Of a DNA stretch of 4,507 bases, positions 160 through 4,507 are shown piece after piece. Each line of letters opens with the position of its first letter. The stretch's first letter is position 1. This DNA is from a virus (taxonomy: Duplodnaviria; Heunggongvirae; Uroviricota; Caudoviricetes), in the IMG/VR virus record IMGVR_UViG_2660238573_000008; one strand, 5' to 3'. The position numbers were made by a program, and so were the translations under genes. Under the pieces are notes generated by a model. It had not been told where the DNA came from. It worked only from the letters and a program-made list of their open reading frames with translations, and did no database searches.

Positions 160-432
160 ATGGACAATAACACCATTTCTCTACAGGAGTTGCTCGACTG
201 CATTTCAAAGCTTCGGGATGATGTAAATGCCCTCACTGTTGCATTTTCATATTTGGCCTTATCAATTCCCAGAGAACAAATGCAACCAACACTGGCATCG
301 CTCCTGCTTGAATCACGCAACCCCAAATGGTCCCAGGAACAACAAAATTCTTTCAAGTGGCTGGCGGCATTACTGGAAGAAAAATATGCTGGTAAAATTA
401 CCATTTCGGTGGAGTCTTCAGAGAATCAGTAA
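160..432 (+). CDS. Hypothetical protein, 90 aa, unknown function
   Basis: ATG at 160 preceded by AAGAGG about 8 nt upstream; stop TAA at 430-432. The translation (MDNNTISLQELLDCISKLRDDV...) has a mixed charged/hydrophobic composition that looks protein-like. I do not recognise the family. Its 3' end overlaps the ydfR-like gene by 35 bp on the opposite strand. Confidence 0.45.
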   Translation: MDNNTISLQELLDCISKLRDDVNALTVAFSYLALSIPREQMQPTLASLLLESRNPKWSQEQQNSFKWLAALLEEKYAGKITISVESSENQ

Positions 433-742
433 TTCTTCCTGGTAGCTTTCCTTTGTAGGTTATCCACACATTCTGCGCCTCTAAAATTACGGGGCGCTTT
501 TCCGGCGACTGCTCATCCCCTTCACATAACCCGGCTGCAACTTCCAGGAAGACCTGTCTGATGCTCCTTCTGGCTGCTGCCTCATAAAACTCCAGCGCGG
601 CACCTTCAACACGGTCCAGCGAGATGTCCAGGTCAAAAATTTCACCGTCAAAGCGTTTTTTGTCCCTTAATGCTACAGTTACCGCAACTTTATTCTCAAA
701 ATTGCGGATCCCTTTCACAATCAGTTCATAGTTTTGTGTCAT
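398..742 (-). CDS. ydfR: YdfR-like prophage protein, 114 aa from the ATG at 742
   Basis: Long minus-strand ORF directly downstream of the holin gene. The internal ATG at 742 is preceded by GGGGAGAG about 7 nt upstream and lies 4 nt after the essQ stop, suggesting translational coupling. The symbol rests on synteny with K-12 Qin as I recall it (essQ then ydfR), not on a verified alignment. Confidence 0.6.
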   Translation of the reverse strand: MTQNYELIVKGIRNFENKVAVTVALRDKKRFDGEIFDLDISLDRVEGAALEFYEAAARRSIRQVFLEVAAGLCEGDEQSPEKRPVILEAQNVWITYKGKLPGRITDSLKTPPKW

Positions 743-746
743 TGAA

Positions 747-962
747 TTACTCTCCCCGTGCAACCTTACGCTTGTCTTCTTTAATCTTGAAATAAAGGTT
801 TGTCAGGTACGTCAGCAAGCCAAATACCAGACTACCCAGCACACCGATTGCAGCCCACTGTGACGGAGTTACTTTATCGAGTAACTGCAATGCCCAGAAA
901 CCAGCATTACCAGCCGATGTGCCATAGGCGATACCTGTTGTTAACTTATCCATTGATTTCAT
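747..962 (-). CDS. essQ: Class II holin (pinholin), S21-like, 71 aa
   Basis: Translation [26 protein letters not shown]...[36 protein letters not shown] closely matches my recollection of phage 21 S / EssD-EssQ holins: two transmembrane segments, a charged C-terminus and an MKSM dual-start motif. RBS GGTGAGGA upstream of the ATG at 962. Confidence 0.9.
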
Positions 963-1180: not shown

Positions 1181-1351
1181 ATGTCAGAACGTAAAGACTC
1201 AAAATCACGCCGTAATTATCTCGTTAAATGTTCCTGCCCAAACTGCACCCAAGAGTCAGAACACAGTTTTTCAAGAGTACAAAAAGGTGCCCTTTTGATC
1301 TGCCCTCATTGCAACAAAGTATTCCAGACAAATCTTAAAGCTGTAGCTTGA
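1181..1351 (+). CDS. Small zinc-ribbon protein, 56 aa, two CxxC motifs
   Basis: ATG at 1181 with AGGA 7 nt upstream; translation MSERKDSKSRRNYLVKCSCPNCTQESEHSFSRVQKGALLICPHCNKVFQTNLKAVA contains CPNC and CPHC spaced as in a zinc ribbon. A hairpin follows at 1417-1430. The ORF track's longer form from 1130 has no RBS. It may correspond to a small zinc-binding protein annotated in K-12 Qin, but I cannot verify that from memory. Confidence 0.5.
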   Translation: MSERKDSKSRRNYLVKCSCPNCTQESEHSFSRVQKGALLICPHCNKVFQTNLKAVA

Positions 1352-1433: not shown

Positions 1434-1714
1434 AATATTGTGGTACTTTTTGTGGGAGTCATCCACTTACGCACTTTGTTTTGCTATGCCAGCAGTTAGC
1501 TTCTGCTGTAAAACTATTCATGCAGCAAACCTGCACTTCACCACAATGGTTAGCATACTTTTCCTGATTAAGTTATTGCCAAATATGCTGGCCATTGTTT
1601 CATGTATTGGACCTCCTTACTCTTTATTAAAGAGATCCAATATTCACCACTCTGTCTGTATCTCCACTCAGGCATCAGCCTTCTTCGTTATCGTATACAG
1701 ACAAACTATGAATT

Positions 1715-1930
1715 TTAATCAGTAATTATGACATTTGCTGCTGCAGGACCTTTAGCACCACTCTCTACAGAGAAGGTAACCTTTTGACCTTCAAATAAGG
1801 TTCGATAATTATCATTCTGAATCGCAGAAAAATGCACAAACACATCTTTACTACCATCAACAGGAGAAATAAAGCCAAAACCTTTATCAGCGTTAAACCA
1901 TTTTACTAAACCAGTCATTTTATTTGACAT
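1715..1930 (-). CDS. cspB: Cold-shock protein CspB (CspA family), 70 aa
   Basis: Translation [71 protein letters not shown] carries the RNP1 (KGFGFI) and RNP2 (VFVHF) motifs and matches my recollection of E. coli CspB. RBS AAGGA upstream of the ATG at 1930. Confidence 0.93.
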
Positions 1931-2230: not shown

Positions 2231-2443
2231 TTGTCCCGTAAAATGACAGGAATTCTCAAAACCTTTGACGGCAAAAGCGGCAAAGGTCTTATAACCCCAT
2301 CCGATGGTCGTATCGATGTCCAGCTTCATGTTTCAGCGCTCAATCTCCGCGATGCAGAAGAAATTACCACCGGATTACGCGTGGAATTTTGCCGGATAAA
2401 TGGTCTGCGTGGACCATCAGCTGCCAATGTTTACCTTTCATGA
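2231..2443 (+). CDS. cspF: Cold-shock-like protein CspF, 70 aa, apparent TTG start
   Basis: Translation [70 protein letters not shown] matches the divergent CspF/CspH subfamily, in which the aromatic RNP1/RNP2 residues are replaced. The ORF starts at TTG 2231 with AGGA 6 nt upstream; the first ATG (2243) has no RBS at a usable distance. Confidence 0.88.
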
Positions 2444-2497
2444 GCTATATTAAAGCTTTAACTTCAAGCCCCATCGAATCAAACATGGAGAGTTTTC

Positions 2498-2587
2498 ATG
2501 AATAAACCCGTCTGTCTTGATGACTGGTTGATTGGCTTTAAAAGCTTATGCTGTACTTTGACCTTAATAGCTCTGCTAATAATATAA
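2498..2587 (+). CDS. Candidate small hydrophobic peptide, 29 aa
   Basis: ATG at 2498 with GGAG 7 nt upstream; translation [29 protein letters not shown] has a hydrophobic C-terminal half. No homology check is possible here, so this is speculative. Confidence 0.3.
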
Positions 2588-2735
2588 TAAGCAGACTCAT
2601 TGTATCTATGGACATTGTACTGGAAGAAAGCATTTTAAACATCAGGCAAAAAACAAAGTCACCCGATAAATAATAAGTAAACTAACATGAATCCCGTAAT
2701 GAGATTCAACATCTCTATTACCCTATTTAAAGCAC

Positions 2736-2760
2736 AAAAACCCGCTCATCAGCGGGTTTT
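2736..2760. terminator. Bidirectional intrinsic terminator, candidate tR' for the late promoter
   Basis: AAAAA, stem CCCGCT (2741-2746), loop CATC, stem AGCGGG (2751-2756), TTTT, with T-runs on both strands. It lies about 40-60 nt downstream of the predicted late promoter start on the minus strand. Confidence 0.65.
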
Positions 2761-2805
2761 CTACTTTTTCTTAACTTCGGGTATACAAAGCCCATCGTTG
2801 AAAAA

Positions 2806-2834
2806 ATTTTATCCATATTTTTTGAAAAATGCAA
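2806..2834 (-). promoter_or_regulatory. Near-consensus sigma70 promoter just downstream of quuQ, candidate late promoter pR'
   Basis: On the minus strand: -35 TTGCAT (plus 2829-2834), exact 17-nt spacer, -10 TAAAAT (plus 2806-2811). It sits about 30 bp after the quuQ stop and fires toward the terminator at 2736-2760 and the lysis genes. Confidence 0.55.
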
Positions 2835-2865
2835 GCATCACGTCGCCATCTTCGGCGAAAATCAC

Positions 2866-3618
2866 TTATCTCGTCACCTTTCTCAATTGTGCTTCAGCGT
2901 AAGATTCCTCCTGCCAGCACTTTGTAACCAGTTTATCAATGACATTTGCATATCCTTTATACCACTGATAATCACTCAGGTCCGGTACCAGCTTCTGGAC
3001 ATGATGCCGCGCCAGTGTGGTTGGTAAACGACTAAACCGTTTTCCATTGCAACGCCCACAAATCTTATAAACAGGTGTGCCATGAAGCCGGGTCCTTTTT
3101 TCATCCAAGACAATACCTTTACCCTTACACCCTCTGCACGCTGTGCTGACTTCTCCCTTACCATGGCAATGCTGACATAGTTCCTTCACCCACTCTTCTT
3201 TGATAACAGATTCCCCGCTTCTGGAGTGTTTCACCACTTCGCGCAATACATTATGAAATCCAGTACCAGCACAATGCTCACAACGAGCCTTACTTGCCGC
3301 AGACCTGGAATAATCAGCAAAGGCAAAATTCACAAGGTAAGGAATAATCTGTAGCCGGGTTTCTTCACTCAATTTATTCAATGTCGGGTTATCCAGTGCC
3401 ATCGCGTAATTGAGCAGACCTTCAATCGCAAACTGAGGATCCTGAACACCAACTTTTGCCAGGAATAAGGCAAACCCAAGCGGTGCTTTCGACTGCACCA
3501 TCCCCTGCGCAGCCATCACATCCGTAATCGTTAAACCACCAGAGCCTGTCGCCGGTGCGTCATCACTCAATTTTGGAGATTTTGGGGAGTAATATTTTGG
3601 TAAGGCTTCAAGGTTCAT
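2866..3618 (-). CDS. quuQ: Late-gene antitermination protein Q (phage 82 type), 250 aa
   Basis: 250-aa ORF with RBS GGAG 7 nt upstream of the ATG at 3618. The sequence carries four CxxC motifs (CEHCAGTG, CQHCHGKG, CRGCKGKG, CGRCNGKR). I recognise the N-terminal region and overall length as Q82-like antiterminator. Position directly upstream of the promoter/terminator module fits. Confidence 0.88.
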   Translation of the reverse strand: MNLEALPKYYSPKSPKLSDDAPATGSGGLTITDVMAAQGMVQSKAPLGFALFLAKVGVQDPQFAIEGLLNYAMALDNPTLNKLSEETRLQIIPYLVNFAFADYSRSAASKARCEHCAGTGFHNVLREVVKHSRSGESVIKEEWVKELCQHCHGKGEVSTACRGCKGKGIVLDEKRTRLHGTPVYKICGRCNGKRFSRLPTTLARHHVQKLVPDLSDYQWYKGYANVIDKLVTKCWQEESYAEAQLRKVTR

Positions 3619-3631
3619 GCTCGTTCTCCAC

Positions 3632-4507
3632 TTACGCCAGTACGCCTATTGCCAGCGCACGATCGATAAAACGAAATATCAGCTCCAGCTGGGAGCCATA
3701 CTTCTCTTCAAATGCCACGGTATCCGCATGCAGCTCGTCGTGATGCTTTCTGCACAAAGGCAACACAAAAAGGTCATGCGCTTTTGTACCCATTCCCCCC
3801 TGACCGTGGCCTATCAGGTGGTGGGGATCATCAGCAGGTTTTCCACAACATGCGCACGGCTGCGTCTTAACCCAGCGCGTGTACTTTTCATTAACCCAGC
3901 GGTGACGTTTTGGGCGTAACATAAAAGACTCCGGCGACTCCGGATCCACTTTCAGCGCCAGCACCTTTTTCGCCTTATCCTGGATGATGCTGGTGGCAGG
4001 AACCGAAGGCACAAGGTCACTTTCCCGGGTAACAGACGGCACAACAGGCTTCGGTAATCTCAGTGCCTTACGGGCTGCACTTTCCGGTAAGGCATCCGCC
4101 AGATCATTACGAATCAGCCACCAGCACAGTTCCGGCATTGTCACAACATGACTGTCATCAAAACCGAGATCCCGACGCACAACAGACAACACCCAGCGGG
4201 CACAGTTATCCGTTGCCATTGATTCCAGCCGTTCCGTGAACTGATCGCGCAGCTGGTTATCGCAGTGCCAGCACAGACGGATTGCGCCCGGAGCGTGTCG
4301 CATTGTTGTCATGTTCTCGCTGTGCCAGTCGGAATGAGGCCACTGGCAGCCTTTTTCACGAAGTAACCAGCTTTCAAGACATTCCACGCCACCAGCACGA
4401 CGGATCACTGCCTCATTGCGGAACACGGCCCGAACGGCAGGATCATCCGCCAGTGAACCGCCCCGGAAATCCTGGAGACTAAACTCCCTGAGAAAGAGGT
4501 AAACAGG
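3632..4507 (-). CDS. ydfU: YdfU-like prophage protein (DUF968-like), 5' end beyond the window
   Basis: The minus-strand reading frame is open from the right edge down to the TAA at 3632-3634; I translated 4427-4507 by hand and found no stop, so the GTG at 4426 used by the ORF track is probably not the true start. The C-terminal region has CACCGKPADDPHHLIGHG...CRKHHDELH, a Cys/His cluster. The stop is 13 nt before the quuQ start. Confidence 0.8.
   Translation of the reverse strand, partial: PVYLFLREFSLQDFRGGSLADDPAVRAVFRNEAVIRRAGGVECLESWLLREKGCQWPHSDWHSENMTTMRHAPGAIRLCWHCDNQLRDQFTERLESMATDNCARWVLSVVRRDLGFDDSHVVTMPELCWWLIRNDLADALPESAARKALRLPKPVVPSVTRESDLVPSVPATSIIQDKAKKVLALKVDPESPESFMLRPKRHRWVNEKYTRWVKTQPCACCGKPADDPHHLIGHGQGGMGTKAHDLFVLPLCRKHHDELHADTVAFEEKYGSQLELIFRFIDRALAIGVLA

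Follow-up and report, generated by a model that had tools for sequence, protein, structure and literature searches.

A conserved multi-domain RNA structure in the 3′ untranslated region of the prophage cold-shock gene cspB, with a proposed role in 3′-end formation and mRNA stability

Explanations of how E. coli regulates its cold-shock genes have so far rested almost entirely on their 5′ untranslated regions (UTRs). One example is the cspA thermosensor (Rfam RF01766), in which a cold-shock mRNA depends on alternative RNA folds, and whose model comprises the 5′ UTR, the coding sequence (CDS) and a short terminator. Downstream of coding sequences, protective 3′ stem-loops are known from processed and Rho-dependent transcripts (Dar and Sorek 2018, PMC6061677); these are stable hairpins without a U-tract, with abundant RNA ends a few nucleotides past the foot. 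A further group consists of 3′ UTR-derived sRNAs (PMC7398697), which arise from conserved 3′ UTRs that end in a terminator and for which there is evidence of upstream processing, while riboswitch aptamers and orphan motifs combine covarying helices around conserved junction nucleotides with mutually exclusive alternative helices. Small proteins may also be encoded in this position: the ynfQ and ynfR genes, short open reading frames (ORFs) 3′ of a cold-shock gene and on the same strand, follow cspI in the Qin prophage. The region downstream of cspB, described here, resembles each of these systems in the property just named and differs from each in others.

The DNA analysed, referred to below as the window, is a stretch of 4,507 nucleotides belonging to a Qin-type lambdoid prophage of E. 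coli, with 100% identity over the query to strain O55:H7 CB9615 and to other strains. Its genes were taken from the ORF list and from the RefSeq annotation of identical DNA, and in the case of ynfU from a family match.

747-962, minus strand: essQ
1181-1351, plus strand: ynfU, the convergent neighbour of cspB, encoding a zinc-ribbon small protein (NCBIfam NF038384, E = 8e-23)
1715-1930, minus strand: cspB CDS, 71 aa
2231-2443, plus strand: cspF
2498-2587, plus strand: ynfS
2866-3618, minus strand: ydfT, Q antiterminator
3632-4426, minus strand: DUF968 gene

The gap between ynfU and cspB carries no RefSeq annotation in any of the genomes listed. Within it, the 281-nt interval at 1434-1714 is about 95.7% identical to its counterpart in K-12 Qin. 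The 5′ UTR and CDS of cspB match the cspA thermoregulator RF01766 with 156.7 bits over 2091-1652; the final hairpin of that model is forced onto a local hairpin (hairpin A, below), the match ends at 1652, and 1434-1650 is left uncovered. The unusually long 3′ region that the first-pass annotation had pointed out is borne out by the analysis: the sole strong minus-strand terminator past cspB, which is bidirectional and common to cspB and convergent ynfU, is the hairpin at 1433-1414, so that the 3′ region extends over about 280-300 nt.

On the cspB strand, the 313-nt 3′ region has a predicted folding energy of -104.7 kcal/mol (z = -7.0 versus shuffles), 21 kcal/mol better than that of the opposite strand (-83.8 kcal/mol, z = -5.2). 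Helices were defined from RNAalifold and explicit pair counts. In 5′ to 3′ order on the minus strand, the region consists of hairpin A, hairpin B, the P0 hairpin, a four-way junction (P1-P4) and the intrinsic terminator, which are placed in the window as follows.

1654-1702, minus strand: hairpin A, whose outer stem of 8 bp (1702-1695 with 1661-1654) surrounds a GA-rich asymmetric internal loop and a short inner stem-loop
1605-1642, minus strand: hairpin B, formed by a 15-bp stem and a loop of 8 nt, whose 3′ arm (1619-1605) holds TAAGGAGGT
1548-1593, minus strand: P0 hairpin of 11 bp (1593-1583 with 1558-1548), with an AU-rich 24-nt loop (1582-1559)
1598-1594 with 1547-1543, minus strand: P0x, an optional extension of P0 that competes with outer P1
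1437-1547, minus strand: four-way junction P1-P4, covarying in alignment A3
1547-1539 with 1445-1437, minus strand: P1
1536-1520, minus strand: P2
1508-1490, minus strand: P3, with the loop AAGCUAA
1466-1452, minus strand: P4
1405-1433, minus strand: intrinsic terminator, an 8-bp GC-rich stem (1433-1414) with five GC pairs, followed by the U-tract TTTTTTATTAT

The four-way junction is supported by covariation, drawn here from roughly five or six independent lineages. In alignment A3, 97.2% of cells are paired, compared with 24-62% when the partners are slid, although such cell counts are inflated because the lineages are phylogenetically non-independent; 9 of the 25 pairs are compensatory, and the junction reaches a covariation score of 0.254, where controls give at most 0.084. 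When P0 is added to the junction, the figures become 95.3% of cells paired and 12 compensatory pairs out of 36, while P0 alone (columns 156-166 with 195-205 of alignment A4) has 89.7% of cells paired and three compensatory pairs. G.U pairs are frequent (GU:16 at A4 columns 217-233, UG:19 at 166-195), which, together with the better folding energy, assigns the structure to the cspB-sense strand. The two inverted repeats that had been noticed at 1490-1508 and 1521-1535 are real and correspond to P3 and P2 of this junction. The P3 loop and the junction strand AAAGUGCGUAA (1477-1467) are the same in every copy seen, an invariance in part imposed by the search, since both served as anchors for most loci; Klebsiella copies found by BLAST also keep the conserved loop and junction motifs. 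A tRNA or tmRNA reading of the junction was rejected, as ARAGORN was negative in the window and the spacer lengths and loops are, on inspection, unlike those of tRNA.

Hairpin A is supported by compensatory changes in seven of its eight outer-stem pairs (alignment A5, 19 distinct sequences). Conservation of its internal loop, CGAYAACGAWGA / CUGAGURGA, extends across the Qin, phage-plasmid, Kosakonia/Enterobacter and Kluyvera lineages; in one copy (L135), Watson-Crick pairs stand in place of the putative G.A and A.G pairs. Candidate, and still putative, motif types for this loop are tandem G.A, K-turn-like and loop-E-like. A motif common to hairpin A and the cold-box region of the cspB 5′ UTR was inconsistent across lineages. 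Hairpin B is predicted to be stable (-18.3 kcal/mol at 37 °C and -26.2 kcal/mol at 15 °C), and by inspection its position is occupied by a strong hairpin of unrelated sequence in SSU5-like phage-plasmid lineages (L003, L105), by a shorter 7-bp hairpin in the PHB10 type and by only a weak, AU-rich one in Kosakonia/Enterobacter (L128). Lineages of the Kosakonia/Enterobacter type have no obvious strong hairpin B, and they also have no obvious terminator after P1.

Distant BLAST matches place the distal half of the interval 3′ of other csp genes, both in phage PHB10 and in SSU5-like phage-plasmids (p503025_100, phage Cyrano). When viral contigs, and genomes taken at one per species, were scanned for sequence patterns, it was recovered from Escherichia, Shigella, Enterobacter, Kosakonia, Kluyvera, Phytobacter, Superficieibacter, Leclercia, Atlantibacter, Pseudescherichia and Raoultella. 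The last nine of these genera, from Enterobacter to Raoultella, carry it on the chromosome, and SSU5-like phage-plasmid carriers belong to Escherichia and Klebsiella. BLAST added Klebsiella phage-plasmids and a conjugative plasmid of K. aerogenes. Qin-like prophages occur in 1640 genomes among 5426 complete ones of E. coli.

Linkage of the element to cold-shock genes is strict in both position and orientation. At essentially every locus with enough upstream sequence, the stop codon of a CspB-clade gene lies 130-220 nt upstream on the same strand, and each upstream CspB-clade gene examined has a cspA-type thermoregulator 5′ UTR. Conversely, a covariance model (R1) derived from 29 distinct copies yields a single match per locus, on the same strand, in 78 of 78 viral loci selected by CspB and having enough downstream sequence. 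The element is absent from cspA, cspG and cspI, and it lies 3′ of its gene, which sets it apart from the cspA thermosensor. Identity between lineages is 68-80% for the distal element, 68-82% for the CDS and 57-65% for downstream DNA. The module cspF (reverse), cspB (forward), RNA element and ynfU (reverse) recurs in Escherichia, Superficieibacter, Enterobacter, Kluyvera, Kosakonia and phage PHB10, and the phage-plasmid copies of the element stand without ynfU and cspF. None of the 4227 Rfam models matches the element in any of six lineages; sub-threshold matches in the window are weak and terminator-driven (Trp_leader, AaHKsRNA82 and others, E = 0.3-0.9), and the five other lineages give none. 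No earlier description of a cspB 3′ UTR element or sRNA was found in Rfam 15 or in a partial literature search.

Evidence on the RNA itself comes from published Term-seq data for K-12 MG1655 (Adams et al. 2021, PMC7815308, supplementary file 1), obtained from cultures at 37 °C without cold shock and from another allele than that of the window. Minus-strand 3′ ends are recorded at 1641226 in LB at OD 0.4 (604,404 reads) and at 1641224 in LB at OD 2.0 (1,233,565 reads) and in M63 (2,464,295 reads). Alignment and annotation place K-12 coordinates at window position plus 1639624, so that these ends have the following equivalent.

1600-1602, minus strand: equivalent of the K-12 RNA 3′ ends, which lie on the U of the mini-ORF ATG (see below) and on the base following it, 3-5 nt beyond the foot of hairpin B

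At the distal terminator, a plus-strand end (1641060) is listed and no minus-strand end in the three conditions at 37 °C (PMC7815308). The structure offers an explanation for this very strong "orphan" Term-seq peak of K-12, in that the in vivo ends fall a few nucleotides downstream of the stable hairpin B; processing and non-canonical termination are alike compatible with this arrangement. It has also been reported that cspB RNA is polyadenylated and is raised in a pcnB mutant (PMC6191717), which fits a decay substrate that ends in a hairpin. In its fold and its 3′ ends, hairpin B is thus like the protective stem-loops of PMC6061677, but it differs from them in being embedded in a larger conserved structure, with about 190 nt more to the true intrinsic terminator.

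Taken together, the interval is best explained as the 3′ UTR of the cspB mRNA, forming a conserved, multi-domain, cis-acting RNA structure that does not code for protein and that probably controls the formation of the 3′ end and the stability of the transcript. The alternative left open by the first-pass annotation, a structured RNA element, is in this respect strongly supported. In the proposed mechanism, transcription would proceed to the distal terminator, after which the distal domain (P0, junction and terminator) would be cut off, most plausibly by an endonuclease acting in or near the AU-rich P0 loop. Exonucleases degrading from 3′ to 5′ would then trim the RNA and stall at hairpin B, leaving the abundant end 3-5 nt past its foot. 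The near-isoenergetic choice between P0x and outer P1 could set the ease of processing, for instance according to temperature or the level of Csp protein, and the outcome would be a tuned lifetime of this cold-shock mRNA. Processing is the presumed origin of the end at hairpin B. A natural variant narrows the model: an 82-nt deletion removing hairpin B, the Shine-Dalgarno (SD) sequence, the mini-ORF considered below and P0 occurs in 5 of 78 loci whose CspB is at least 99% identical to that of the window, and is also carried by Escherichia sp. E1V33. Hairpin B and P0 are dispensable in this variant, and the proposed processing route is therefore not universal.

The possibility of a switch arises from P0x and P1, which have 4-5 nt in common and are therefore mutually exclusive. 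Both show covariation, P0x at A4 columns 153-207 (UA:11/AU:7) and 154-206 (CG:18/UA:4), and P1 at 206-318 (GC:16/AU:5) and 207-317 (AU:15/UA:7). Under constrained folding, the two states are at most 2.5 kcal/mol apart in 16 of 23 representatives and 0.3 kcal/mol apart in the window. Two exclusive covarying helices, seen in about five independent lineages and evaluated with a nearest-neighbour energy model, are suggestive of a switch. A tentative extension of this idea is that cspB-type 3′ UTRs would represent a previously undescribed class of bistable regulatory RNA, in which a hairpin with a GA-rich internal loop is combined with a four-way junction that might toggle between P0x and P1 in response to temperature, Csp level or a bound factor (e.g., the co-inherited YnfU), and so decide whether the protective 3′ end is kept or lost.

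Among other readings, a trans-acting RNA has to be considered, namely that the distal domain (P0 or the junction, with the terminator) is released as a stable 3′ UTR-derived sRNA whose seed would be the conserved single-stranded AAAGUGCGUAAG or the loop of P3. The GC-rich terminator and its U-tail are typical of Hfq-binding sRNAs, conserved unpaired nucleotides are present, and the end mapped at hairpin B implies a second fragment downstream. However, with no minus-strand end listed at the terminator in three conditions at 37 °C, the K-12 Term-seq data show no stable RNA ending there, and several lineages have no clear terminator after P1. A four-way junction is also unusual for base-pairing sRNAs and does not follow the seed-plus-terminator layout of the sRNAs in PMC7398697, and neither an independent nor a conserved promoter for the distal domain was seen by scanning and inspection. 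The presence of cspB RNA among the partners of RyhB (PMC6191717) would be in keeping with sRNA activity, but the best predicted duplex of RyhB with the cspB 3′ UTR (-31.4 kcal/mol) is no better than shuffles (mean -33.5 kcal/mol) and gives no signal. An sRNA of this kind is regarded as unlikely.

A sensory role for the junction, either riboswitch-like or as a binding site for CspB, CspF or YnfU, that would control terminator read-through or the fate of the mRNA, is considered unlikely. This reading is suggested by the multi-helix junction with its conserved junction and loop nucleotides, by the two mutually exclusive covarying helices, by the terminator that directly follows P1 in the Qin, phage-plasmid and Superficieibacter lineages, and by the conservation of a gene module that includes the zinc-ribbon protein YnfU and CspF. 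Nevertheless, the element matches no Rfam riboswitch, and unlike riboswitches it lies 3′ of its own gene, where either a convergent gene or none follows, which leaves no obvious target of regulation downstream. The switch helices are, in addition, clear of the terminator stem, and both ynfU and cspF are missing beside the phage-plasmid copies.

The first-pass annotation had further proposed that a small protein may be co-transcribed with cspB, and the sequence features on which this rested are correctly placed.

1568-1603, minus strand: 11-codon mini-ORF MKQWPAYLAIT, codons 2-7 of which form the 5′ strands of P0x and P0

The sequence TAAGGAGGT at 1619-1611 (minus strand) is followed after 7 nt by the ATG at 1603-1601 and 11 codons ending with TAA at 1570-1568, and the longer 35-aa frame from the ATG at 1675 (ORF 1568-1675) is likewise present. 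An SD sequence and a start codon at functional spacing thus exist. The argument that such a signal is unlikely by chance holds for the 9-mer TAAGGAGGT, which occurs once against 0.03 expected (at least once in 4 of 200 shuffles), but not for the core pattern GGAGG-N5-9-ATG, which occurs once against 0.55 expected (at least once in 90 of 200 shuffles); an SD-plus-ATG arrangement is therefore not improbable in itself.

Translation of the 11-aa peptide from this SD and ATG 1603 is nevertheless very unlikely, even though the SD is of full consensus with 7-nt spacing, the SD and ATG are kept in 88 of 96 Qin-type loci, and ynfQ and ynfR provide a precedent for small ORFs after a csp gene. The SD is sequestered within the 15-bp stem of hairpin B, with a predicted unpaired probability of at most 0.04 at both 37 °C and 15 °C, and the strong K-12 RNA 3′ ends lie on the ATG or 1 nt past it. 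Among the 96 Qin-type loci (25 distinct 3′ regions), the peptide exists in six forms that differ by six substitutions, all of them nonsynonymous, and one allele has a stop at codon 4. The K-12 change from CCA to CUA (Pro to Leu) repairs a C.A mismatch to a U-A pair in P0, whose 5′ strand corresponds to codons 4-7. Variants of the SD are GGAGA (n = 6) and GGCGG (n = 2), and in the former a U.G pair becomes U-A, which makes hairpin B stronger and the SD weaker. The region is deleted in the five loci noted above, and in other lineages the nucleotides at this position are conserved, yet there is no SD, ATG or reading frame. Whereas ynfQ and ynfR are annotated genes, the mini-ORF is variable, deletable, sequestered, situated at or beyond the mapped RNA 3′ end and unannotated in RefSeq, and sequence comparison found no homology to the cspI-ynfQ-ynfR small-protein region. 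Comparison across Qin-like loci, which had been named as a check, speaks against the peptide. The mini-ORF is judged not to be a gene; its SD is the 3′ arm of hairpin B, and its own sequence the 5′ strand of P0 and P0x.

Other reading frames of the interval fare no better. In K-12, and in 62 of the 96 Qin-type loci, the 35-aa ORF is interrupted by a TAG as its fourth codon. No ORF of the interval, including the 35-aa ORF, a 95-aa ORF on the plus strand and the 25-aa ORF MASIFGNNLIRKSMLTIVVKCRFAA, belongs to an NCBIfam or Pfam family. A 12-codon frame, MLTIVVKCRFAA, which lies within the 25-aa ORF, runs through the junction and is open across lineages, was rejected as it varies most at codon position 1 and least at position 3, the reverse of coding periodicity.

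That the interval is a non-functional relic, its similarity reflecting the recent horizontal spread of one csp cassette, would accord with the confinement of all carriers to mobile elements or islands of a single family, Enterobacteriaceae, but is the least probable reading, given that lineages differ by 20-30% within the element while pairing is kept through compensatory changes, and that flanking non-coding DNA is at background identity while the element is level with the CDS.

These findings indicate that cspB, a K-12 gene studied for decades, has a 3′ UTR of about 300 nt whose architecture is shared by some ten genera and by mobile elements of several kinds, with a degree of conservation equal to that of the protein. 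They also illustrate that a textbook SD and ATG can be a by-product of RNA structure, and they remove a tempting false-positive small protein. The defined helices and conserved nucleotides provide concrete targets for mutation. If the two-state model holds, cspB would offer a rare case of a structured bacterial 3′-UTR switch governing mRNA lifetime, and, if the tentative class proposed here is real, it would represent a 3′-UTR counterpart of the cspA 5′-UTR thermosensor, portable on phages and plasmids.

At the upstream end of the cspB mRNA, the published Term-seq table of E. coli K-12 (Adams et al., PMC7815308) places 3' ends within the 5' UTR and the ORF, at K-12 positions 1641634 and 1641537, and the same study reports that Rho terminates transcription of cspB and of cspG prematurely. 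The cspB mRNA is therefore regulated at both ends. The window coordinates of this and other features are as follows.

160-432, plus strand: 90-aa ORF overlapping the end of the longer YdfR-family gene
398-763, minus strand: longer form of the YdfR-family gene
1181-1351: ynfU, with homologues at the compared csp loci L005, L128, L131, L132, L133 and L145
1411-1433: ynfU/cspB convergent terminator, bidirectional by sequence
1931-2091: cspB 5' UTR
2737-2760, minus strand: strong terminator hairpin directly 3' of ydfT (2866-3618), which encodes the Q antiterminator

At the convergent terminator, the K-12 table holds only a plus-strand 3' end, that of ynfU, at 1641060 (PMC7815308). The hairpin downstream of ydfT occupies the position of the lambdoid tR', and a minus-strand 3' end has been mapped to the equivalent K-12 site, at 1642356 (PMC7815308). 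This end fits a short "6S-like" transcript running from pR' to tR' in this Qin-type cryptic prophage.

YnfU is a zinc-ribbon small protein whose gene keeps its convergent placement to the csp 3' element, the structured RNA of the cspB 3' UTR, across genera. It weakly resembles a "Zn-ribbon RNA-binding protein" model (E = 0.08, below threshold), and it may be regarded as a candidate partner of the element RNA. Other neighbours include Rfam STnc100 sRNA matches above the gathering score in Superficieibacter (L132 2941-3070, 68.4 bits) and phage PHB10 (L005 4288-4489, 52.7 bits), at distances from the csp module of a few hundred bases to about 1.2 kb. Both the 90-aa ORF and the longer YdfR-family gene are annotated in E. 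coli O55:H7 CB9615, and K-12 Qin carries only the shorter ydfR at this position.

Within the element, the octamer GUGGUGAA occurs twice on the minus strand of the window (1643-1650 and 1539-1546). In the full-length minimum free energy fold of the window allele, the 3' strand of junction helix P1 pairs with the upstream octamer rather than with the P1 copy. Because K-12 has GUAGUGAA at the upstream position and other lineages lack this copy, it is probably allele-specific.

Disrupted or rearranged copies of the element also occur. In Raoultella lignicola (L140, ~4490-4558), a tandem (CCTGAAAG)n expansion in the P2-P3 interval replaces the J2/3 strand, and this copy is probably inactivated. In E. 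coli 873.10 (L006, ~2288-3084), IS1 interrupts the element and cspB is lost, leaving only the 3' 84 nt adjoining ynfU. At L081 (~2946-2965), unrelated DNA borders the element precisely where P1 begins.

Loci L166 (1760-1810, as an example), L167, L170, L177, L183 and L144 carry a naturally occurring allele in which 82 nt of the cspB 3' UTR are deleted. An 18-nt short hairpin, GUGGGUAUUGAAUCCCAU, stands in place of hairpin B, the 11-codon mini-ORF and P0. Hairpin A is still present, as are the junction and the terminator. This allele constitutes a natural mutant already at hand for tests of function.
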